From Candidatus Phycocordibacter aenigmaticus (GTDB lineage Bacteria; Patescibacteriota; Minisyncoccia; Phycocordibacterales; Phycocordibacteraceae), in assembly GCA_045401115.1 (NCBI GenBank), contig CP174359.1, positions 355,247-419,246 of the forward strand: a DNA stretch of 64,000 nt. The letters run 5' to 3'. Position numbers and translations under genes: made by a program. This document shows positions 2,475-64,000 of the stretch, piece by piece (the first letter of the stretch is position 1; each line of letters opens with the position of its first letter). Under the pieces are notes generated by a model, which was given only the letters and a program-made list of their open reading frames with translations, was not told the origin of the DNA and searched no databases.

Positions 2475-4031
2475 ATGTCTGTGAATCGCTATCTCATCGG
2501 TATTATTCTTATTGGGGTTATTATTGCCGCTTTTGTACTGCGTTTTGCAGCTTTTGACCACCCACTTTCTATGCACGCGGCAGAAGGATTTCGTGATTTA
2601 TTCGTTGCAAAACACGCGCTTATATATAATGAGTGGCCACTCAGTGGCCACCACAACGGCCTTTCTACTGTCGATAATAGTCCTCTGTATTATTATTTAA
2701 TTATTGGTTTCGCGCTGTTCACGCAATCTTTTTTTGGCGTGAGTGTGCTTTTTATCATATTTCAAACGGTTTTCGTAGCGCTCGTGTTCTTAATTACTCG
2801 GGCGTTATTCAATTCTATTGCTGGTCTTGTTGCTGCTTTTTTTCTTGCATTTTCACCACATTATATAATAACGGTTACGAGCGATTCCATTTGGCCTCCT
2901 TACTTTGCGGCAACATTTGTTGTTGTTTCGCTGTGGTTGTTATGGCGAGGAGATAAACAGACACATAGAGCACTTATTATAGCGAGTCCAATAGCTATGC
3001 TTATGGCAGTTGCGATACATCAAGCAACGCTGGCGCTTGCTATGCCGTATGCCGCCCTTGGATTATATGTGGCGTATAGAAATAGGTTTTTACTTAAACA
3101 CTACCTTATTGCCGGGGGTATGTTCCTGTTGTGTGCTGGTGTCTTGTTTTTACCTTCACTCCTTACACATCAAGGTGCATTGCAATGGGGGACTCGTATT
3201 TCAGATCACACCGTAATTCCAGTTTTTGATGCATTCCACTTAGCGTTCTCTCAAATACTGTATACGTTCGGATTATCCGGTATTACTTCTACTGCAGCGG
3301 CCGCAGTTATTATTTCTTTTATTACACTCAGTACGTGGTTTATCTATTCTTCTAAAGTACTGAGAAAAGAAAAGGTTTTTTATGGATTAGGAATACTGTT
3401 TCTTGTCACTCAAATATGCATTATTGTATTTTTTGACCCAGAAGGTTTTTTACGGCATATGGAACCGGCGCTTTGGATATTGACTGTGTTGCTCGGCGTT
3501 ATTATTACTGCACCTTTTATCAAACAAAACCATCTGATGATGGGTGTGTCTCTTATTGTTTGTTTGGTGACGCTACATGCCATGGTAACTGATGAGCGAA
3601 TGTTTAGGGTATATCCGAACATTGGAACCTTTGAATATCCTCACTATCAACTTATGGATCGCGCGGTTGATGCGTTAGTTGAAGATATACGTTACATAAA
3701 AGAAGAGCATCAGTATACTGATTATACGTTTTTCAATATCCACGCGCTCAGTAAGACGGGGAGTGTTGTTTCGCCACTCGTATTTTGGTTCCCATTAGAA
3801 GAGCGATTAGACGCTCGGCTTGAAAAATCACCGAATACAGTCACTGGTAATTTTTGGGCGAAACATGTTGATGATTATTTATTCTACGCTTGTTTTAAGC
3901 AAAAAAATAATTATAGTGACGAGCAATGTTTGAGTGATTTTTCAAAGCAACACACTCATCATAATATAGAAAAACAGGTGTTTTACGATGATGTATTGAG
4001 TATCTATCGGTCATCACGGCTGTCTCCGTAG
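2475..4031 (+). CDS. Polytopic GT-C-type membrane glycosyltransferase (ArnT/PMT-like topology) with C-terminal soluble domain
   Basis: About 10 or more TM helices then a ~120 aa hydrophilic tail; context beside GT2 and deacetylase; start at the Met at 2475. Confidence 0.5.
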   Translation: MSVNRYLIGIILIGVIIAAFVLRFAAFDHPLSMHAAEGFRDLFVAKHALIYNEWPLSGHHNGLSTVDNSPLYYYLIIGFALFTQSFFGVSVLFIIFQTVFVALVFLITRALFNSIAGLVAAFFLAFSPHYIITVTSDSIWPPYFAATFVVVSLWLLWRGDKQTHRALIIASPIAMLMAVAIHQATLALAMPYAALGLYVAYRNRFLLKHYLIAGGMFLLCAGVLFLPSLLTHQGALQWGTRISDHTVIPVFDAFHLAFSQILYTFGLSGITSTAAAAVIISFITLSTWFIYSSKVLRKEKVFYGLGILFLVTQICIIVFFDPEGFLRHMEPALWILTVLLGVIITAPFIKQNHLMMGVSLIVCLVTLHAMVTDERMFRVYPNIGTFEYPHYQLMDRAVDALVEDIRYIKEEHQYTDYTFFNIHALSKTGSVVSPLVFWFPLEERLDARLEKSPNTVTGNFWAKHVDDYLFYACFKQKNNYSDEQCLSDFSKQHTHHNIEKQVFYDDVLSIYRSSRLSP

Positions 4032-4462: not shown

Positions 4463-5266
4463 ATGCAGAATATAATTGTAGGAATTGTTCTTTTACTAGT
4501 CGGTTTTTTTGGTGGGTATTTCGTCTCAGGTAATACCCTTTCAGAGGAACATAATATCCATTCTGAAACAGAGGAGCATGGTGATAGTGGGCATGCGATG
4601 GAGCATAGCACTCCAGTTGATGTACCCGCTGGTGCTTCAGCTCCGGCAGTTGCTCTTGAGGTGTTCGAAGACCCAATGAGTGGATGGAATGTAAAAATTA
4701 CCACTGAAAATTTCCGTTTTTCTCCAGAAAACGCGTCTCAAGACCACATACTCGGTGAAGGGCACGCACACGTTTACGTTGATGGAGAAAAAATTAACCG
4801 TGTCTATGGGTCGTGGTATCATCTCGGCGATCTATCAGTTGGTGAGCATGAGATAAAAGTGAACTTAAACGCAAACAATCACAACCCATACTCAGTAAAT
4901 GGTGTGTTGGTTGAAGATTCCGTAACCGTTGTTGTTGAGCCAGAGCCGGAGTTTGATGCGGCGAACGCTAAAATGATGAGTCTCTCACTAACAAATCGTA
5001 CACTTTCTCCGGAAATGGTAACGGTTTCTGAAGGTGATAGTGTGCATCTCATGGTGAACACTGATGAAGCTGGTGAGTTCCATATTGCCGGCTATGAGGT
5101 TGTGCAAGAGATGAGCACTGACGGAGCAACAAGTATTATGTTTGTTGCTGATCAGGCTGGGCGTTACGCGCTTGAATTCCACCCTAATTCAGGTGGGCAT
5201 ATGGATGAGGAAGATCATGGAACCATGGAAGACATTGAGATTGGTTCTCTTCTGGTAAATCCGTAA
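4463..5266 (+). CDS. Secreted or anchored His-rich metal-binding protein with cupredoxin-like C-terminal domain
   Basis: N-terminal TM anchor; His-rich linker (HSETEEHGDSGHAMEH); C-terminal beta-rich domain with H...FVADQAGRYALEFH resembling cupredoxin/EfeO-like Cu sites. Confidence 0.5.
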   Translation: MQNIIVGIVLLLVGFFGGYFVSGNTLSEEHNIHSETEEHGDSGHAMEHSTPVDVPAGASAPAVALEVFEDPMSGWNVKITTENFRFSPENASQDHILGEGHAHVYVDGEKINRVYGSWYHLGDLSVGEHEIKVNLNANNHNPYSVNGVLVEDSVTVVVEPEPEFDAANAKMMSLSLTNRTLSPEMVTVSEGDSVHLMVNTDEAGEFHIAGYEVVQEMSTDGATSIMFVADQAGRYALEFHPNSGGHMDEEDHGTMEDIEIGSLLVNP

Positions 5267-11468: not shown

Positions 11469-11498
11469 TTAAACGGCTCACTCCAGTGAGCCGTTTAA
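11469..11498. terminator. Bidirectional terminator hairpin (member of the AAACGGCTCAC palindromic family) between convergent typA and corA
   Basis: TTAAACGGCTCAC-TCCA-GTGAGCCGTTTAAA. Confidence 0.65.
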
Positions 11499-24264: not shown

Positions 24265-24296
24265 AATAAACGGCTCACCATAGTGAGCCGTTTATT
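24265..24296. terminator. Terminator hairpin after groEL (AAACGGCTCAC palindromic family)
   Basis: AATAAACGGCTCAC-CATA-GTGAGCCGTTTATT followed by T-run. Confidence 0.65.
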
Positions 24297-26188: not shown

Positions 26189-26463
26189 ACACACCATCAT
26201 ACAATACAGCGGTGTTTTTTGGTTTATATATCGTTCTTAATGGTTCCTTTAAATGCCTCAGCAGCCGCCACAAAAGCGCCTTGTTGCATAAGGGCTAATT
26301 GTTTATGTGTTTTGGCTTGTTCATAATGAGCAACCGCCTGAGGATCTCGTTCTCGTGATGCCATATCTTTTGTATAAGAGAGGGTTACCTCCTCTTATAG
26401 GAAGAACCTGGTTGTGAGCAGTGAGGTTACTAATACATTTTAATTTTGTTATAAAGAGTGTCA

Positions 26464-26550
26464 CGGAGGAGTGGCTGAGTGGTCGAAGGCGCTCGCTTGG
26501 AAAGCGAGTGTGGGTTTACACCCACCGCAGGTTCGAATCCTGTCTCCTCC
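26464..26550 (+). tRNA. tRNA-Ser (anticodon GGA), class II with long variable arm
   Basis: GGAGGAG acceptor stem, anticodon loop TTGGAAA, T-arm GCAGG-TTCGAAT-CCTGT; CCA not encoded. Confidence 0.85.
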
Positions 26551-26736
26551 GCAGATGTCTAAGAAAATGCGAAAGCGTTTGATTAGAAAAAGCTGCGCAA
26601 GGAGAGAGAATTCGAACGGGAAGGGGGTCGGGGAAACGGGAGTTTCCCCGTGGCGGAATGAGGCGAAGCCGGACATAAAACCGAGGGGTTTTATGAGCGC
26701 AGCGAAGCGAGCAGTGAGATTCCTGTCTCCTCCGCA
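26551..26736 (+). mobile_element. tRNA-flanking structured element A, ending in a direct repeat of the tRNA-Ser 3' end (att-like)
   Basis: 18/19-nt copy of the tRNA 3' end at 26716-26736; GNRA hairpin 26563-26578; hairpins 26629-26650 and 26674-26695. Confidence 0.5.
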
Positions 26737-26963
26737 CTAAACAAAAGGATTGGCTTTGTGCTAGTGCTTTTGTTTTATATAAGGAGCGGCAGGATGAGAA
26801 GCAAGATGCTGGGAGCGTAAATTTTCTTGAGTGAGACGAGGTGGACAACTCTTGCTTGTGAACTCCTTTCTGACGGTGTATTTTAAAGACGGCTTGAACG
26901 GATTTCTAACCTTGTGCTACTCCTCGTGGATCGGTGTTGGTGGAGCAATAAAGCCGCTTTATT

Positions 26964-35514: not shown

Positions 35515-35832
35515 ATGCAACATATAGAACAACTACAAGCAATCGAACACGCACCGGCACGTTTGTGTAACTTAGGTATTTATGGGGAACTTAAGGTGCA
35601 TGATGTAGAAAAAGCGGTAGAAGCTGGTGAAATAAGCTTCCATGAAGGGGTTGAGTTAATTGAAAAATTTGGTGATCTTTCTAGAGTAGAGGCTTCACGC
35701 GTTCTTGAAGATGCTCTTGAGTCTCCGAATGATGCTATAGCTGAACTTCTTTCTGAAAGCGCACCACCTCTAAATGACGGCACTAATGTGTTTTACAGTG
35801 CCTGTGAAGCAATCTTCCAGTCTGGAATGTAG
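35515..35832 (+). CDS. Hypothetical acidic protein
   Basis: ORF with downstream terminator; no recognised domain. Confidence 0.4.
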   Translation: MQHIEQLQAIEHAPARLCNLGIYGELKVHDVEKAVEAGEISFHEGVELIEKFGDLSRVEASRVLEDALESPNDAIAELLSESAPPLNDGTNVFYSACEAIFQSGM

Positions 35833-35850: not shown

Positions 35851-35883
35851 AAACAACCCGCTTACATGGCGGGTTGTTTTTAT
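35851..35883 (+). terminator. Rho-independent terminator
   Basis: AAACAACCCGC-TTACATG-GCGGGTTGTTTTT. Confidence 0.7.
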
Positions 35884-35884
35884 T

Positions 35885-36151
35885 GATGTCCGCGCTAGAA
35901 CGCTTCGCTATCTCACTGCTCCCCAGCACCAGTTTGAGACAAAATGAAAATGGTTCGAAAATCTTTGTATGGAAATGAAACGTATCATACCTACTCACGT
36001 CCGTTCTCAAACTGGAGCTGGGTGTGCTCATAGAACCCTCGGTTCTATGTCGGCCAAAGGCCTAACTCCTCCACGGGAAAACAACGTGTTTTCCCGACCC
36101 TTTTCCAGTTCGATTCCTAGCAAGGGCACGGAATATGCTTCGCATTTTTAT
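35885..36151 (-). mobile_element. tRNA-Arg-flanking structured element E (related to element A), with an inverted copy of the tRNA 3' end
   Basis: 21-bp inverted repeat 36108-36129 / 36154-36175 involving the tRNA 3' end; hairpins 36029-36049 and 36074-36096 homologous to those of element A. Confidence 0.45.
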
Positions 36152-36227
36152 TGGTGCCCTTGCTAGGAATCGAACCTAGATCTAGAACTTAGGAGGTTCT
36201 TGTTCTATCCATTGAACTACAAGGGCA
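36152..36227 (-). tRNA. tRNA-Arg (anticodon CCT), CCA encoded
   Basis: Reverse complement gives TGCCCTT acceptor, anticodon loop CTCCTAA, GGTTCGATTCC T-arm, ...GGGCACCA. Confidence 0.85.
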
Positions 36228-36325
36228 TAGTGCTTCACGATAATGCGCGTCTTTTGCAAGCAAGAAGTGAATAGAAGTCTTGCTTATATTCACGCCGACG
36301 CGCCGCAAAAGTGGAAGCGCATTAT

Positions 36326-36598
36326 CTTACCACGCGCCCGCGTATGAAAAGACACGCAGTGCTTTCATACAAGAGCCAAAGGTTTGTGGTATTCCCACTG
36401 GCTCATGAAATACACGCAGTGATTTCATACAAGGGTGAGTAAAGGAGCTCGCTTACATTTTTGTTGAGGCGATGGAAAAAGTAAAGCGTGTTGCCTTACC
36501 ACGCGCCCGCGTATGAAAAGACACGCAGTGCTTTCATACAAGAGCCAAAGGTTTGTGGTATTCCCACTGGCTCATGAAATACACGCAGTGATTTCATA
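36326..36598. repeat. Two ~104-bp perfect direct repeats (36326-36429 and 36495-36598, period 169 bp), each holding two palindromes with a conserved ACACGCAGTG centre
   Basis: Direct comparison; TATGAAA...TTTCATA and CATGAAAT...ATTTCATA sub-palindromes. Confidence 0.8.
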
Positions 36599-36673
36599 TA
36601 AGGCATCGGACGTATCAAGCCGCACGGGGGTAAATACCCCCTAAACGGCTCTCTATGTTGTACACTGTTTTAT

Positions 36674-37012
36674 ATGAATCAGCAAAAGCAAAAAAAAGAA
36701 CCAGGACCTTCTTTAGATGAAGTATATAAGCTTGCTAAGGAAAATAATCGCATGCTCAAAGCCATGCGTCGGGATGCTTTCATTGGTGCTATCTTAAAAT
36801 TTGTGTTCTGGATTGCGATACTTTTTGTTATTCCTTATATTTTATATACGGTGTATCTGCAACCTCATTTAGTCAATCTTCAAAATACATATAATCAGTT
36901 TAATCAAAAAGTAGAAGCAATTGACGGCGCCTCACAAGAACTTCAGCAAGTGCGTGAAAGCCTCCCTGAAGGCTTTAACTCCTTTCTTGAGCAGTTTGGT
37001 ATTGGTGGCTAG
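36674..37012 (+). CDS. Hypothetical membrane protein
   Basis: Single TM, coiled-coil C-terminus. Confidence 0.4.
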   Translation: MNQQKQKKEPGPSLDEVYKLAKENNRMLKAMRRDAFIGAILKFVFWIAILFVIPYILYTVYLQPHLVNLQNTYNQFNQKVEAIDGASQELQQVRESLPEGFNSFLEQFGIGG

Positions 37013-37188
37013 AAAGATGGATTTTTGAGTGGGTTTTGATAGAATGGGGGACATTGCTAAGATTGAATGGTCTTGGTGATTGCCCTGCCGAGGGAAGATG
37101 TACTTCGTGTTATCTTGCCTCGGATGCAGTAAAGTTCCTCTCGAGGTAAAGCTTCTTACGGTCGCTTTGCCTCGGCGTCGAGCTGAGA

Positions 37189-37284
37189 GAATACGCTTCC
37201 TTTTTTCCGGCACGTCAACAAAAATGTAAGCGAGCTTCCATTTTTGTCTTGCTTGGAAAAATCGCGTATTCTCGTTAACCTCTT
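37189..37284 (+). promoter_or_regulatory. Conserved upstream stem-loop/promoter region of tRNA-Phe (homologous region lies upstream of tRNA-Arg)
   Basis: 10-bp inverted repeat GAGAATACGC...GCGTATTCTC; shared CTTGCTTG-AAAA-CGCG-ATT-TCGT block with 36229-36330 (tRNA-Arg). Confidence 0.45.
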
Positions 37285-37358
37285 GCCGAGGTAGCTCAGG
37301 TGGTTAGAGCACTGGTCTGAAGAACCAGGTGTCGGCGGTTCGAGTCCGCCCCTCGGCA
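37285..37358 (+). tRNA. tRNA-Phe (anticodon GAA)
   Basis: GCCGAGGTAGCTCAGGTGGTTAGAGC..., anticodon loop CTGAAGA, GGTTCGAGTCCGCC T-arm. Confidence 0.9.
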
Positions 37359-37561
37359 CAAAAACAATGAAGCCCGATACGAGAGTATCGGGCGATTTGT
37401 TTTGTAGCTACGAGGGCGGACTCGAAAGACGGAGCCGTGGGTCCCCATTGTGCTGAGTTTCAGGCACAATGGGGCGGCGAGTCCGGGCAGGAGGTTGTTA
37501 TGAGTTTTTCTATCGAGAGATAGGTAAAAACGAATTACGAACCTGACGCCGAGTCCGCCCC
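37359..37561 (+). mobile_element. tRNA-Phe-flanking structured element B, ending in a 12-nt repeat of the tRNA T-loop/T-stem (CGAGTCCGCCCC)
   Basis: GNRA hairpin 37373-37392; hairpin 37443-37476; shared 16-mer CGAGTCCGGGCAGGAG 37478-37493; junction GACGCCGAGTCC 37545-37556. Confidence 0.45.
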
Positions 37562-37589
37562 ATAACTTAGACTGGTTTATACTATACAT

Positions 37590-38096
37590 ATGGAGAAAAA
37601 AGTTTCCGTGAGTTTGGTAGACCAGCCAAACTATTCCTATACGCTTACTGAGCCGGTAGGGAAGAATTTTGACCCTGAATTTACGCCACACCTTACCCCC
37701 AAAGAGATGCTTGAGTTGGGCGTATTTTGTGGTCAATATATGCGCGACGGTGCCAAGGAATTTCCTGACTCATGGTTTACAAAAGCAAAGTTTACTAAAG
37801 GAGACAAAGCGGATTGCTCACTCAACTATTTTAAGGTGAATGCAAGCCAACCGCTTAGCGCATGGCAGGAAAAAGGATGGATACATCCAGACGATCCACG
37901 TGGGTGGTTTCAGTGGTACTGTCGGTATTACATGGGAAGGCGTCATGAGGATGATGAACGACAAATAAAGCGATGGAAGGCGTTTAGACGCCATGCAGCA
38001 CAAGTGCGAAACAACTGCGAGAGAGGAGATATGGGTTGTCGGTCCAAACAGCGCCAGGCCCTTCTGCACTGGGCATATGATAGTCGAAAATTATAA
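37590..38096 (+). CDS. Conserved hypothetical protein (Trp/Cys-rich; GWFQWYCRYYMGRR motif)
   Basis: 168-aa ORF with terminator; family not identified with confidence. Confidence 0.45.
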   Translation: MEKKVSVSLVDQPNYSYTLTEPVGKNFDPEFTPHLTPKEMLELGVFCGQYMRDGAKEFPDSWFTKAKFTKGDKADCSLNYFKVNASQPLSAWQEKGWIHPDDPRGWFQWYCRYYMGRRHEDDERQIKRWKAFRRHAAQVRNNCERGDMGCRSKQRQALLHWAYDSRKL

Positions 38097-41595: not shown

Positions 41596-41629
41596 ATATA
41601 AACGGCTCACCCAGGTGAGCCGTTTATAT
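41596..41629. repeat. AAACGGCTCAC palindromic hairpin (family copy 3) in a divergent intergenic region
   Basis: ATATAAACGGCTCAC-CCAG-GTGAGCCGTTTATAT. Confidence 0.7.
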
Positions 41630-42830: not shown

Positions 42831-44003
42831 TTATTCAGCGAGTGATTGCGAACCTCGCGCGTTCAGTTCTTTTTCAGTATCTGCTTTGCCGGCGCTGTGG
42901 CGCAAGTATGCGGCGATACCTATCATAATTGCATTATCTCCGGTTAGTCCGCTTTCAGGATAATGAAGCGTTATGTTTGGATGGTGAGAAACCAGTTCCT
43001 CTAATCCTTCACGGATATGTGTATTTGCCGCTACGCCGCCTCCGACCACGAGTGTTTTGGGATGTTGTATTTCAATGGCGCGTTTTGTTTTGTGCACCAA
43101 CACATCACGCGCCGCGTCTTCAAATTCGCGAGCAATATTTTCTTTATCTTCTTGTGAAAGTTCTCCCATGTCACGCACTAAGTAGAGTACAGCCGTTTTC
43201 AGACCTGAAAACGATACATCGCAACTTTCTTCGTGTAACATCGGGCGGGGAAGTGTAATAGGGTTTTCACCACCGCGCTCGCGTGCTTTTGTAGCATATG
43301 CAGATATTTCCGGCCCACCAGGATACTCAAGACCTAAGAGGCGCGCCACTTTATCAAACGCTTCACCTACGGCGTCATCGCGCGTTTGACCCACTAAATT
43401 ATATGCAAACCACTCTTTCATGGTAATAAGTTCAGTGTGTCCACCGGAAATAAGTAGTGCCAGTAATGGCAGTGCAGTGTCAGTAATATGATAGGTGTTT
43501 GGGGTGCGGAGGTCTTTTTTGAGTAGAGCAGAGGTAATGTGTCCTTCCATATGGTCAATGCCGGTCAGGGGAATATCCCAGGCAGCGCTGAGTGCTTGCG
43601 CAAAGGTAACACCGGTCCACAGTGCGGGTTCCAACCCAGGTCCGTTGGTTACAGCAATAAGGTCAATATCAGGTTTCTCGGTCGTTTCAAGGAAATCATT
43701 CACCGCTTTTTTAAATGATTCGTCACGGAGTGGTTCAAGCACATCGTCCGTTATTGTGTTGCAAGAGTCTTGTTTAAGTAGGCCTGCCTGGCGCAATGTT
43801 TCTGTGGTTAGGGGCACCAAATTTTGTTGGTGTTCACGTTTCGCAAGGGAAGGGTACACGCCGCCATACTCAGAGTGCTTAGATGCCTGAGAGTACAAGG
43901 AATCACCCAGAAGGGTATATTGGGATGATTCAATATTACCTGTCGCCTCAAGTACGGTTATTGCGGTCTCGTCACAACTGGTTTCAATGGCTAAAATTTT
44001 CAT
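42831..44003 (-). CDS. tsaD: tRNA N6-adenosine threonylcarbamoyltransferase TsaD (Kae1/Qri7 family)
   Basis: MKILAIETSCDETAI N-terminus, HMEGH metal-binding motif. Confidence 0.9.
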   Translation of the reverse strand: MKILAIETSCDETAITVLEATGNIESSQYTLLGDSLYSQASKHSEYGGVYPSLAKREHQQNLVPLTTETLRQAGLLKQDSCNTITDDVLEPLRDESFKKAVNDFLETTEKPDIDLIAVTNGPGLEPALWTGVTFAQALSAAWDIPLTGIDHMEGHITSALLKKDLRTPNTYHITDTALPLLALLISGGHTELITMKEWFAYNLVGQTRDDAVGEAFDKVARLLGLEYPGGPEISAYATKARERGGENPITLPRPMLHEESCDVSFSGLKTAVLYLVRDMGELSQEDKENIAREFEDAARDVLVHKTKRAIEIQHPKTLVVGGGVAANTHIREGLEELVSHHPNITLHYPESGLTGDNAIMIGIAAYLRHSAGKADTEKELNARGSQSLAE

Positions 44004-44010
44004 ATACAGA

Positions 44011-44213
44011 TGTTGTGGGCGATACAGGACTCGGCGTCAGGTTCCTAAGCTCATTCATCGCTCCGCTCTTCATTCACTAAGGACCTCCTGCCCGGCCTCG
44101 CCGACAAGCACTCGCTCTCGCTCGTCTTGTATACCGGCTCCGGCTTTCTCGTCCTGTGTCGCTGCTACAAACCTAAGTTGCATCATGCATGCGCATACTG
44201 CTCTAAGGTTTTG
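44011..44213 (-). mobile_element. tRNA-Val-flanking structured element D, ending (44011-44030) in a 20/21-nt direct repeat of the tRNA 3' end
   Basis: TGTGGGCGATACAGGACTCG present at 44011-44030 and 44212-44231; GACGCCGAGTCC junction and CCGGGCAGGAG motif on the minus strand. Confidence 0.5.
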
Positions 44214-44287
44214 TGGGCGATACAGGACTCGAACCTGTGACCTCGTCAACGTCAATGACGCGCTCTAGCCAACTGAGCTAATCGCCC
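44214..44287 (-). tRNA. tRNA-Val (anticodon GAC)
   Basis: Reverse complement gives GGGCGATTAGCTCAGTTGGCTAGAGC, anticodon loop TTGACGT, GGTTCGAGTCCTGT T-arm. Confidence 0.9.
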
Positions 44288-49726: not shown

Positions 49727-49803
49727 AAAAGTGACCAAAAGGACCTTTAAAATATAGCATTTTGAGCAGAAAATGCTAGGATTTCCTGAGTGAGTTTCTC
49801 ATT

Positions 49804-49887
49804 GGAGGAGTGCCCGGAATTGGTAACGGACCGCTCTCGAAAAGCGGCGCGGGAAACCGCTTGTGGGTTCGAGTCCCATCTCCTCCG
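49804..49887 (+). tRNA. tRNA-Ser (anticodon CGA), class II
   Basis: GGAGGAG acceptor, 3-bp D stem, anticodon loop CTCGAAA, variable arm, GTGGG-TTCGAGT-CCCAT T-arm. Confidence 0.8.
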
Positions 49888-50083
49888 CAAATGTCTAAGA
49901 AGACGCGAGAGCGTCTGATTAGCAACAATTGCGAGAAGGAGATGAGGCGAGAAAGACGGAGGCCGCGAAGCCGTGACGATAGTACACGTGGCCGAGTCCG
50001 GGCAGGAGCCACTTAGTATTTTGTGAGCAAAGCGAGACAAAATAGTTAGTGAGTTGACGCCGAGTCCCATCTCCTCCGCAAAT
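49888..50083 (+). mobile_element. tRNA-Ser(CGA)-flanking structured element C, ending in a 23-nt direct repeat of the tRNA 3' end
   Basis: CGAGTCCCATCTCCTCCGCAAAT at 49871-49893 and 50061-50083; GNRA hairpin 49901-49916; 16-mer CGAGTCCGGGCAGGAG 49993-50008. Confidence 0.5.
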
Positions 50084-50632: not shown

Positions 50633-50710
50633 GTTTTTCTTGGTTATCTACTATAATTTCATAGTACCATTCTCGTTGATATTGTGTAGCGTCACACCTA
50701 TAAACGGCTC

Positions 50711-50740
50711 AATGCATTGAGCCGTTTATTACACACCCTT
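50711..50740. repeat. AAACGGCTCA palindromic hairpin (family copy 4) in a divergent intergenic region
   Basis: ATAAACGGCTCA-ATGCAT-TGAGCCGTTTAT. Confidence 0.7.
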
Positions 50741-60980: not shown

Positions 60981-61022
60981 CACACCCCCTGGTCAACACC
61001 CGGGTGTTGACCAGGGGGTGTG
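60981..61022. repeat. 42-bp perfect palindrome in the divergent intergenic region
   Basis: CACACCCCCTGGTCAACACCC|GGGTGTTGACCAGGGGGTGTG. Confidence 0.85.
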
Positions 61023-61986: not shown

Positions 61987-62022
61987 TGGTCTGTATTCTC
62001 TCCTGAATAATTGTTATACTAA

Positions 62023-64000
62023 TATAAAATATGGCCCGTAAAAAAAATAACGAGACTCCTGAAGAAATTCCACAGCATACTGGAGTGATTGAGCACTCTA
62101 TTGTTGAGGAAATGCGTTCAAGCTATTTGGATTATGCCATGAGCGTTATTACGTCTCGTGCGATTCCTGATGTGCGTGATGGTTTAAAGCCGGTACATCG
62201 TCGCATTCTCTTTACAATGCATGAGTTGAATCTTAATCCCGGGGGGAAGACGCGTAAGAGTGCAAAAATTACTGGTGATGTGACCGGTAACTATCACCCG
62301 CATGGAGATGCGGCAGTATATGATTCACTTGCGAAAATGGCGCAAGATTTTACATTCCGCTACCCATTGGTTATTGGACAAGGTAACTTTGGTTCAATAG
62401 ATGGCGATGCTCCGGCTGCGCCACGTTATACCGAGGCAAAAATGAGCCGTGTTGCAGTGGAGATGCTTCAAGACATTGAAAAGGAAACAGTTGCGTGGCG
62501 ACCTAACTATGAAGGAACTCGAAAGGAGCCTATTGTATTACCTTCAGTGCTACCGAATCTTCTTTTGAATGGAACTCTCGGAATTGCAGTTGGTATGGCA
62601 ACTAATATTCCGCCACATAACTTAGGTGAACTTATTGATGCAACTGTACATCTTGCTGATAATCCAAAGGCGTCTATCGATGACTTGATGGAATTCATTA
62701 AAGGACCTGATTTTCCAATGGGAGGAATTGCCTACAATATAAAAGACATTGCTCAGGCGTACGCAACAGGACGAGGATCAGTAGTAGTACGCGGAGAAAC
62801 TGATATTACGGAAGACAATAAAGGAAATCCGCAAATTGTTATTTCATCTATTCCGTATCGTGTTAACAAGGCTGATTTGATTGTAAAAATTGCTGACCTG
62901 GTCCGTGACAAGAAACTTGATGGTATTAAAGACTTACGCGATGAATCAACCAAAGACATTCGTGTAGTTATCGATTTGAAATCATCAGCACAGCCACAGG
63001 CGGTATTGAATTATTTGTATAAACATACACAACTTGAAGACTCATTCCACTTCAATATGGTGACGCTTGTCGATGGTGTACCGCAAACGCTTTCACTCGA
63101 TGGCATTCTTTCTAATTTCATTGAGCACCGCAAAGAAGTAGTGAAGCGTCGCACTGAGTTTGATCTACGTAAAGCACAAGACCGTGAACATATTTTACTT
63201 GGTCTTAAGAAGGCACTCGATCATATTGATGAGATCATTGCGCTTATTAAGAAAGCAAAAGACGTACCAACAGCGCACGCTGAGTTGATGAAGAAATTTA
63301 AATTCTCTGATCGTCAAACCACCGCTATCCTTGAAATGCGTCTTTCAAAACTTGCCGGTCTTGAGCGTAAGAAAATTGAAGAAGAATTAAAGGAAGTGCA
63401 AAGTTTAATTAAAGAACTCGAGAGCATTTTAAAGTCACCAGCAAAAATGCTGACAGTAATTAAAAATGAATTAAAAGCAGTTGGTGAAAAACATGGCGAT
63501 GAGCGTCGTACAAAAATTGTAAAAGGTGGGGTGAAGAGTATGTCTATGGAAGACCTTATTCCAGATGAGCCGGCAATGATGACATTGACGAATAATGGAT
63601 ATATTAAACGCACGAACCCATCTGAGTATAAGAAACAAAAACGCGGAGGCGTAGGAGTGGTTGATCTGTCAACTAAAGATGAAGATTTTGTCACTCGGTT
63701 TGTTGAAGGTTCAACACATGATGCAGTATTGCTCTTCACTGATAAAGGCAAGGTATACCGTACTCGTATGTACGATATACCTGAAGGACGTCGGGCAACG
63801 AAAGGTAAGTCGGTGATGAATGTGCTACCTCTCTCGCAAGAAGAACACGTGACGAGTGTGGTTATTGTGCCAAACGGTAAGAAAAAAGATGATAGTCATG
63901 CTGATTCGTTTATGTTGGTCACACAACATGGGGTCGTTAAGAAGGTGGGAGCTGACCACTTCGAGGATGTTCGCAAAAGTGGCATTATTGCTATAAAACT
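62023..64000 (+). CDS. gyrA: DNA gyrase subunit A, N-terminal ~660 aa (continues beyond window)
   Basis: Translation gives AIPDVRDGLKPVHRRIL, active-site YHPHGD...; no stop before window end, so absent from the ORF track. Confidence 0.95.

Follow-up and report, generated by a model that had tools for sequence, protein, structure and literature searches.

A non-coding, probably mobile element with an inverted copy of the tRNA 3' end behind tRNA-Arg(CCT) of Candidatus Phycocordibacter aenigmaticus

The chromosomal stretch of 64,000 nucleotides (nt) from Candidatus Phycocordibacter aenigmaticus that was analysed here (assembly GCA_045401115.1, contig CP174359.1, positions 355,247 to 419,246; called the window in the following, with all positions counted from its first letter) contains a tRNA-Arg(CCT) gene on the minus strand, which is followed on its 3' side by a non-coding segment of 275 bp, named element E. 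The element begins with a short loop and an exact inverted copy of the tRNA 3' end, continues with a series of hairpins and ends with a degenerate direct copy of the same tRNA end at a terminator. Apparently, E belongs to a set of related, so far undescribed families of gene-free, tRNA-targeting elements in Patescibacteria of the Paceibacteria type, and we consider it probable that E is a mobile insertion. Read from the tRNA outwards, the locus consists of the following parts.

36152-36226, minus strand: tRNA-Arg(CCT), complete, with encoded CCA (ARAGORN; Rfam tRNA model 71.8 bits)
35877-36151, minus strand: element E, non-coding, 275 bp, 3' of tRNA-Arg(CCT)
36154-36175, minus strand: proximal arm, the last 22 nt of tRNA-Arg, 100% complementary to 36108-36129
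36130-36153, minus strand: loop, 24 nt, with the mini-hairpin ATGCGAAGCAT (GCGAAGC at 36137-36143)
36108-36129, minus strand: inverted ('anti') copy of the tRNA-Arg 3' end (repeat search)
36097-36107, minus strand: G-rich linker TGGAAAAGGGT, of which family 1 keeps GGGAAGGGGGT (alignments)
36074-36096, minus strand: hairpin H1, CGGGAAAACA-CGT-TGTTTTCCCG, 8 pairs, 4 of them with compensatory changes among 5 elements
36052-36073, minus strand: conserved junction TGGAGGAGTTA and mini-hairpin H2 (GGCC-TTT-GGCC; GGC-GAA-GCC in relatives)
36029-36049, minus strand: hairpin H3, CATAGAACC-GAG-GGTTCTATG, 9 pairs, 3 of them with compensatory changes
35922-36022, minus strand: variable hairpin H4, an insertion of 101 nt with an 18-bp stem (17/18 paired; repeat search and alignment)
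35910-35921, minus strand: right-end motif of family 1, GAGCAGTGAGAT, invariant in A, E, L001 and L003, with GTGAGAT in L006
35901-35909, minus strand: additional mini-hairpin GCGAAGC, which separates the right-end motif from the distal copy and is found in E only
35877-35900, minus strand: distal degenerate direct copy of the tRNA 3' end and its flank, TTCTAGCGCGGACATCAATAAAAA versus TCCTAGCAAGGGCACCAATAAAAA (repeat search)
35851-35879, both directions: original bidirectional terminator, shared with the upstream open reading frame (ORF) 35515-35832 (terminator scan)

The proximal arm covers the 3' part of the T-loop, the 3' strands of the T-stem and the acceptor stem, the discriminator and the first C of the CCA end. 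According to the repeat search, 24 nt separate the two arms; by our own calculation, about 4e-7 perfect inverted repeats of a 22-mer with arms within 120 nt would be expected per 64 kb. An earlier reading of the bare sequence (the original prediction) had described this repeat as an exact inverted copy of 21 nt with a loop of 24 nt, of which the copy and the loop hold while the length has to be corrected to 22 nt. The tRNA-Arg together with E folds at -138.9 kcal/mol (z = -8.8 compared to shuffled sequences), and in this minimum-energy fold the 22-bp stem displaces the acceptor and T arms. The terminator scan found no T-run terminator in the loop (36130-36153) and zero terminators on the minus strand from 36100 to 36180, where the 22-bp stem is followed by TGGAAAAGGG and not by a T run. 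Because its loop is free of a terminator, the tRNA-Arg transcripts probably run into the inverted copy, and in such a precursor the 22-bp helix could compete with the folding of the tRNA. We regard this competition as a side effect, because the relatives discussed below do without E.

E is one of several such elements. They were found behind five of the six tRNA genes in the window, tRNA-Glu being the sole one without an element, and fall into families according to their cores. The other four in the window are as follows.

26553-26736, plus strand: element A, family 1, after tRNA-Ser(GGA) (26465-26552)
37360-37561, plus strand: family-2 element after tRNA-Phe (37285-37359), with loop terminator 37372-37393, anti copy 37414-37426 and direct copy 37550-37561
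44013-44212, minus strand: family-2 element after tRNA-Val (44213-44287), with a 21-nt direct copy at 44013-44033
49889-50083, plus strand: family-2 element after tRNA-Ser(CGA) (49804-49888), with a 23-nt direct copy at 50061-50083

Element A consists of a loop, a degenerate anti copy at 26594-26617 (TGCGCAAGGAGAGAGAATTCGAAC), a core, the motif GAGCAGTGAGAT at 26709-26720 and a perfect 16-nt direct copy at 26721-26736. Its homology to E, which had already been proposed, was confirmed: the cores are 76% identical over 92 nt, the loops have AAAATGCGAA in common, and the hairpins said to lie downstream of tRNA-Arg were found at 36074-36096 and 36029-36049, the latter (H3) being homologous to 26674-26695 of element A, where its counterpart CATAAAACCGAGGGGTTTTATG sits. 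The proposed distinction between a direct duplication in A and an inverted one in E had to be given up, since both elements carry both copies. H4 is represented in other members of family 1 by a hairpin of 10-25 nt, and no second copy of the H4 of E was found in the window or at the loci of relatives. E is unusual among the elements in having the shortest loop, the sole perfect arms, a decayed distal copy and the 101-nt H4 hairpin. The family-2 core carries ...GAAAGNCGGAGCC...GAGKCCGGGCAGGAG...CTGACGC, and the loop of the tRNA-Ser(CGA) element is 81% identical to that of element A.

All cases with a recognisable direct copy, i.e. the five elements in the window and those at L001, L003, L004, L006, L008, L011, L012 and L014 (loci of other genomes, introduced below), follow the same five-part plan. 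An intact tRNA is followed by a loop, which usually contains an intrinsic terminator with A and T tracts, then by an inverted copy of the 3' end of its own tRNA and by a hairpin-rich non-coding core, which closes with a short family-specific motif at its right end (family 1: GAGCAGTGAGAT; family 2: CTGACGC; family 3: GGTGAC). The last part is a direct copy of the tRNA that starts in the T-loop and reaches 0-10 nt beyond the tRNA.

Since every element contains the inverted copy and none of the empty sites does, this copy is part of the element. When 28 tRNAs were compared, the cognate tRNA was the best match of the inverted copy for all five elements of the window; for the inverted copies of L006 and L011, the best matches were other alleles of the same tRNA type. 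These findings bear on two explanations that would deprive the inverted repeat of E of any wider meaning. The first is a replication accident, in which template switching at a hairpin beside the tRNA produced the repeat independently of the rest of the element. The genome is full of long perfect palindromes, the T-loop sequence TTCGAA is self-complementary and could mediate such a strand switch, and it is E that has the shortest loop and the sole perfect arms. Nevertheless, the inverted copy occupies the same position in every element of the three core families and is missing from all empty sites; template switching could thus explain why the arms of E are perfect but not why they exist, and we regard such an accident as highly improbable. 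The second is a fold-back chimera in the assembly, which has to be considered as the window comes from a metagenome-assembled genome (MAG). Here the loop argues otherwise, being unique sequence that is homologous to the loop of element A, and different studies yielded at least eight independent assemblies with the same architecture, so that an artefact appears practically negligible as an explanation.

The relatives were represented by the syntenic LepA loci of nine genomes (L004, L006, L008-L012, L014 and L015; LepA identity 63-79%). Their tRNA-Arg(CCT) gene is free of an element in all nine (L004, L006, L008, L009, L010, L011, L012, L014, L015). In L011 the gene order is that of the window, i.e. 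glutaredoxin, terminator and tRNA-Arg on the minus strand, with the tRNA lying directly at the terminator. In the window, by comparison, a degenerate distal copy lies at the terminator and the complete tRNA-Arg 275 bp further off, hence the distal copy of E occupies the position where the 3' end of tRNA-Arg abuts the terminator in L011. This distal copy is 24 nt long, includes the flank AATAAAAA and differs from the tRNA-Arg end at 6/19 positions and by one indel. Its acceptor strand, CGCGGAC, is nearer to the L011 allele CGAGGAC than to the present allele CAAGGGC; the acceptor stems of tRNA-Arg(CCT) differ among all relatives sampled.

The cores themselves were found at other tRNAs. Exact-pattern scans detected the family-1 core after tRNA-Tyr in a Candidatus Paceibacteria MAG (L001) and after tRNA-Ile in a metagenome contig of the Joint Genome Institute (JGI; L003), each with its own inverted and direct tRNA copies. 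A match in Enterobacterales (L002) was dismissed as a chance match with no tRNA near. As the core also occurs in L006, the suspicion that the sequence shared by A and E might not be conserved in other genomes can be set aside. Altogether, the element cores in related genomes follow tRNAs for Tyr, Ile, Phe, Gly and Ser, and in the window and the searched loci of relatives they occur beside tRNAs only. Sites are variably occupied. The tRNA-Phe site is occupied in the window and in L004, where a perfect repeat of 27 bp, made up of the final 17 nt of the tRNA and 10 nt of its flank, lies on both sides of the element, while L012 has the identical tRNA-Phe allele without an element and L006 likewise has an empty site. 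At the tRNA-Ser(GGA) site, family 1 is represented by a full element in the window and by a short variant in L006, L012 has an element of family 3 and L004 a remnant of 45 nt. Moreover, parts are shared between different tRNAs: the core of the tRNA-Val element in the window is 78% identical to the tRNA-Phe core in L004, and the loop and terminator of the tRNA-Phe element in the window match those of the tRNA-Gly element in L011, with identical flanks and a compensated stem. Further tRNAs are devoid of any element, namely Trp and Leu in L001 in addition to tRNA-Glu in the window.

Because the same cores lie behind other tRNAs, tRNA-Arg is empty in nine relatives and different families occupy the tRNA-Ser site, E is an insertion and not a conserved device for tRNA processing. 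The latter had been suggested by the original prediction, in which the element is a functional trailer: co-transcribed with the tRNA, its stem would sequester the 3' end of tRNA-Arg and control maturation, stability or termination. Several features of E are in line with this idea, i.e. the absence of a terminator between the tRNA and the inverted copy, the minimum-energy fold in which the 22-bp stem replaces the acceptor and T arms, the folding of the sense strand, and the combination of perfect arms with a decayed distal copy, as expected if the pairing is under selection. However, when the tRNA-Arg loci were compared as had been advised, none of the 9 sampled relatives had the element or the stem, so that all of them mature tRNA-Arg(CCT) without it and the conservation expected of a processing device is missing. 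Furthermore, most sister elements place a real terminator in the loop, before the inverted copy, and pair poorly, no T run follows the stem of E, the same cores jump among unrelated tRNAs, and tRNA-Glu, Trp and Leu do without any element. Hence, the sequestration of the tRNA 3' end is physically plausible in read-through transcripts, as the fold indicates, but as a side effect and not as a function; a processing or terminator structure finds no support in this sense, and we judge a functional trailer to be improbable. Among the three readings that had been offered, an 'inverted att remnant' comes nearest to the evidence, with two amendments: the inverted copy is a constant part of the insertion, and the inserted element additionally leaves a direct repeat resembling an attachment (att) site.

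The direct repeats give further information about the integration. Their left edge is fixed in the T-loop (TT/CGA.. in families 2 and 3, ../TCC in family 1, with the slash marking the edge), their right edge is variable, with lengths of 12-27 nt and perfect repeats of 15, 16, 17, 19, 20, 21, 23 and 27 nt. The junction sequences are GAGAT/TCC in family 1 and GACGC/CGAGTCC in family 2. A fixed left edge together with a variable right edge therefore indicates an att identity block, i.e. the identity between an element-borne site and the tRNA gene, and not a target duplication of fixed length. For the latter reason a duplication by a transposase or casposase was rejected, and likewise a miniature inverted-repeat transposable element (MITE) derived from a DDE transposon, given repeats of 12 to 27 nt with a fixed left edge and copies that all lie beside tRNAs. 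At the tRNA-Gly locus the elements occur in tandem, with a distal unit that is common to L004 and L014 and a tRNA-proximal unit that differs between them, which is what repeated integration at a regenerated site predicts. As a detail of these tRNA-Gly(CCC) arrays (L004 13050-13180; L014 13125-13400), the minimal distal unit measures about 65 nt and consists of a hairpin, the inverted copy, CTATG and CTTATCCCGCAC. Overall, E and its relatives show what is known from site-specific elements in tRNA genes: the element lies between an intact tRNA and a direct repeat of the 3' part of this tRNA, and related genomes have empty sites.

A search of about 50 ORFs in the window yielded no recombinase, transposase or reverse transcriptase, all of them being housekeeping genes. 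E itself has no coding capacity, with short ORFs only and zero Pfam matches, and an integrase is absent inside E as well as in or near the elements in the window and at the sampled loci of relatives. As no integrase lies inside E, only a non-autonomous relative of the tRNA-integrating elements comes into question. Such a relative might be a conventional double-stranded integrative element or its deletion derivative, comparable to the mini-islands known as cis-mobilisable elements (CIMEs). A tyrosine integrase encoded elsewhere would recombine an ordinary attP with the tRNA 3' end, and the inverted copy would not be the attachment site but a structural accessory, which might bind a protein or contribute to a long bidirectional terminator or insulator. 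The start of the direct repeats in the T-loop, which is the classic crossover region of integrases, their variable length, the empty sites and the tandem arrays all agree with this explanation, and the working-looking loop terminator, the A/T tracts and the two tRNA-derived arms indeed make one long palindrome. But, apart from the missing integrase, independent deletions would not leave the same core of 110-190 nt with compensated hairpins, and the explanation does not predict an inverted copy that is found in every element, in no empty site and specific for the tRNA type. We therefore hold it to be rather unlikely.

The folding of the core is conserved. Four hairpins of the family-1 core are retained in a model-fitted alignment of five elements, with 133/133 cells paired and 9 pairs showing double changes, values which were reached by 0/500 shuffles and collapsed in slid controls. 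The sole non-Watson-Crick cells are 4 G-U, with no A-C among them; therefore it is the tRNA-sense strand that folds. An unusually stable DNA mini-hairpin, the heptamer GCGAAGC, has 11 occurrences in the window, 5 of which lie inside elements (about 1 kb of sequence) and all 5 of these on the sense strand. For each of ten elements we reconstructed the junction that joins the right end, the tRNA 3' copy, the loop and the anti copy. It folds into one long imperfect DNA hairpin with the terminator as its tip in 7/10 cases (z from -3.3 to -7.1), the exceptions being A, L003 and L012.

A folding sense strand may also belong to an RNA. In such a case, the active form would be a transcript from the strong tRNA promoter, and the element would be a mobile or guide RNA, inserted by reverse transcription or RNA-guided recombination, whose antisense segment pairs with the tRNA gene or the tRNA as exon-binding and intron-binding sites (EBS-IBS) of group II introns or guide RNAs do. 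The structure of the sense strand that is kept with G-U pairs, the position directly 3' of the tRNA, which gives free expression and processing, and the match of the antisense segment to its target tRNA are consistent with it. Against it, no gene for a reverse transcriptase, TnpB/IscB or an IS110-type protein was found in the window or at the sampled loci, in most loops a terminator would end transcription ahead of the antisense segment, and in Rfam 15 the tRNAs alone reach the gathering score, with nothing but noise up to an E-value of 10 (e.g. YrlA with 18 bits versus a cut-off of 69). In addition, group II introns are reported as absent from Patescibacteria (PMC13011429). An RNA-based element thus seems very unlikely. 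Other RNA-related candidates were tried and rejected as well. A group I intron in the T-loop was dismissed on three grounds: the tRNA is complete without splicing, no intron model matched, and the known tRNA introns of Patescibacteria sit in the anticodon loop (PMC13011429). Hammerhead and other small ribozymes gave zero model matches and their core motifs do not fit, and the likeness between GAGTCCGGGCAGG of family 2 and AGUCCGGGC of RNase P RNA was dropped as a passing one because no RNase P model matched. The core is not a reverse-complemented tRNA either, as the opposite strand has no tRNA match, and a displaced 5' half of tRNA-Arg was searched for and not found. Distant direct copies of tRNA 3' ends, which would be a sign of large islands, are missing in the window.

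The arrangement of E resembles a system in which integration proceeds through a folded single strand. In the CTX phage and the integrative mobile elements exploiting Xer (IMEX), two inverted dif-like sites form an imperfect ('forked') hairpin in the single-stranded plus-strand DNA, which is the attachment site, and XerC exchanges one strand pair (PMC3089051). The likeness extends to the lack of an own recombinase, to the order of restored functional target, loop, inverted non-functional target-like copy, cargo and direct non-functional copy, which is found in E as well, and to tandem arrays in which the newest copy adjoins the functional site. The elements described here differ by targeting the T-loop and 3' end of a tRNA, each its own, instead of dif, and contain no dif-like 11-6-11 site. 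Furthermore, their cargo is just 100-190 nt of hairpins with no phage encoded, and the host is a Patescibacterium; for the present elements, a role of Xer and of single-stranded DNA is hypothetical.

From this resemblance we infer a single-stranded intermediate, a recombinase and a homogenisation of the arms of E, which might work together as follows. The element would supply a replacement 3' end of the tRNA from the T-loop onward together with its loop, which bears a terminator in most relatives. In a single-stranded circle, the copy of the tRNA 3' end and the antisense copy would fold into a hairpin that mimics the double-stranded target and thereby forms the attachment site. A recombinase provided in trans would exchange strands in the T-loop, in the way XerCD acts for the CTX phage at dif and IntI at the attC of integrons. 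After a single strand exchange with the chromosome and subsequent replication, the left part of the chromosome would be joined to the right part of the target copy, followed by loop, inverted copy and cargo, and after the cargo the left part of the site of the element would be joined to the right part of the chromosome. The displaced original 3' end would persist as a partial direct repeat beside the original terminator. An integration via such a hairpin would result in the order restored target, loop, inverted copy, cargo and partial direct copy, which is the observed order. For E, the predicted circle junction is ...GAGCAGTGAGAT(AGCGAAGCG) joined to TCCTAGCAAGGGCACCAATAAAAATGCG..., i.e. GAGCAGTGAGAT plus TCC plus the tRNA 3' copy. 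E may be old enough for the displaced copy to retain an ancestral allele of tRNA-Arg. Template switching or gene conversion may have preserved the identity between the inverted copy and the functional arm, with selection fixing the arm in the tRNA; the perfect arms and the decayed distal copy are likely to go back to the unusually short loop, which would favour such homogenisation. Alternatively, the pairing itself may be selected.

Taken as a whole, we lean somewhat towards E being a non-coding, non-autonomous mobile element that was integrated site-specifically into the 3' end of tRNA-Arg(CCT) by way of a folded single strand. Of its parts, the mobile insertion is probable, as stated above, whereas the folded single-strand mechanism taken by itself is a tentative and rather doubtful suggestion. 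A number of observations weigh against it. The inverted copy of L003 has no remaining tRNA match and hardly pairs, and most elements with perfect direct repeats pair their inverted copy imperfectly with the tRNA end. In the reconstructed hairpin, it is the T-loop region that is mismatched. The G-U pairs and the co-transcription with the tRNA, which the terminator-free loop of E allows, suit an RNA form equally to single-stranded DNA. The distal copies of E, of the L006 tRNA-Ser element and of the L010 tRNA-Gly element look like other alleles, the present tRNA differing from them on both acceptor strands. This goes beyond a simple exchange of 3' ends and needs co-evolution of the tRNA or secondary recombination between tandem or allelic copies. 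Finally, a circular or excised form, an autonomous relative and a candidate recombinase were not found, with the relatives sampled at the LepA neighbourhoods alone and the public genome scans using exact patterns, which returned only two true loci. Viral contigs scanned with exact patterns of families 1 and 2 gave 0 matches, and a BLAST search of phage and plasmid records no match.

The comparison with other known systems shows likeness in some respects and clear differences in others. Integron cassettes (attC x attI) are likewise small promoter-less units with a folded single-strand site of imperfect inverted repeats, whose strand-specific structure is conserved above the sequence, and the newest unit adjoins the primary site. 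In contrast, the present elements show no GTTRRRY/RYYYAAC core and are without ORF cargo, an integron integrase was not found, an attI platform is not nearby, and the target is a tRNA gene that becomes regenerated. With tRNA-integrating islands, prophages and CIMEs they share the 3' part of a tRNA as target, the crossover in the T-loop region, the replacement 3' end, flanking direct repeats of variable length and tandem accretion. They differ from them by a size of 65-280 bp, the lack of genes, the conserved structured core and the obligatory antisense copy of the target, which an ordinary attP does not have. Short, non-autonomous, strand-specific extragenic hairpins that are mobilised in trans through single-stranded DNA are also found among repetitive extragenic palindromes (REP), their paired forms (REPINs) and palindrome-associated transposable elements (PATEs) derived from IS200/IS605, often 3' of genes and doubling as terminators. 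But these make no direct target repeats, recognise targets of 4-5 nt and are scattered in intergenic DNA without specificity for tRNAs, and the Y1 transposase of IS200/IS605 was not seen here. The 3' ends of tRNA genes are also the target of some casposons, whose flanking duplications include this end. Casposons have terminal inverted repeats, a fixed duplication of 14-15 bp and genes for Cas1 and a polymerase, whereas the elements described here have repeats of 12 to 27 nt, no such terminal inverted repeats and no genes. A prior description of elements of this kind was not found in the literature searched, whose coverage is incomplete.

It is conceivable, although we put it forward with considerable reservation, that the elements represent a new class of gene-free mobile elements, which home to tRNA genes via an antisense copy of the target 3' end and become integrated by a recombinase of the host. 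If this is true, the Xer-exploiting phages and integron cassettes would have in them a counterpart directed at tRNAs, and the integration via hairpin attachment sites, so far known for dif and integrons, would be extended to tRNA genes. The design is modular, consisting of target copy, terminator, antisense target copy and structured core. Elements of this design would be re-targetable between tRNAs by changing two short segments, i.e. a natural integration site that is re-programmed by base complementarity, and would be abundant in the reduced genomes of Patescibacteria. Some of these bacteria, whose genomes of about 0.7 Mb are thought to be poor in mobile DNA, would then be host to a swarm of minute tRNA-gene parasites. 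There are also practical consequences. E puts a 22-bp competitor helix into the tRNA-Arg precursor, and the elements create false ORFs over tRNA loci and mark recombination hot spots, the block of tRNA-Arg and tRNA-Phe being inverted between relatives.

Several observations were made on the elements and their surroundings. ORFs of 93-146 amino acids cross tRNA genes and elements at 26516-26848 (minus), 37296-37736 (minus), 43987-44268 (plus) and 49747-50070 (minus); they have no Pfam match and are likely false gene calls produced by the elements. The internal motif CGAGTCCGGGCAGGAGCCA of family 2 resembles a fossil tRNA 3' end. Upstream of tRNA-Ser(GGA), a family-1 right-end motif (GAGCAGTGAGGT) and a hairpin lie within 26189-26464, especially at 26416-26427. 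The spacer before this tRNA measures 275 nt in the window versus 30 nt in L004 and may be the remnant of another element. In L008, an HNH endonuclease gene (1924-2418) ends 6 nt before a tRNA-Ser(TGA) that bears a family-2 element, and a gene with a Hint domain (2779-3648) follows this element. The order and orientation of tRNA-Arg(CCT) and tRNA-Phe relative to a small membrane ORF and glutaredoxin differ between the window (at 36152-37359) and L004, L006 and L008-L012. Arg and Phe are swapped or inverted among relatives, tRNA-Arg alone is flipped in some of them, and the tRNA genes look like hot spots of inversion.

The divergent genes for tRNA-Arg and tRNA-Phe have upstream (promoter) regions that form mutual inverted repeats with 73-78% complementarity (36229-36277 with 37235-37283, and 36446-36503 with 37179-37236). 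Upstream of tRNA-Arg lies, in addition, a tandem duplicate of 156 nt (36279-36434 and 36448-36603, 87-95% identical). Two hairpins of the form GTATGAAA..CACGCAGTG..TTTCATAC lie within each of the two copies, and no copy was detected at the loci of relatives. Elsewhere in the window, a 1.3-kb stretch (61987-63313) is without an ORF above 70 amino acids and without an Rfam match, and a loop-free perfect palindrome of 42 bp, CACACCCCCTGGTCAACACCC followed directly by GGGTGTTGACCAGGGGGTGTG, lies at 60981-61022. Finally, an intergenic palindrome AAACGGCTCAC-NNN-GTGAGCCGTTT occurs at 11471-11496, 24268-24293, 41600-41625 and 50702-50727 as well as in L001 (about 4855-4880), where it follows tRNA-Leu. 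With 11 half-site matches compared to 1.1 expected, it may represent a shared terminator or a REP-like hairpin.

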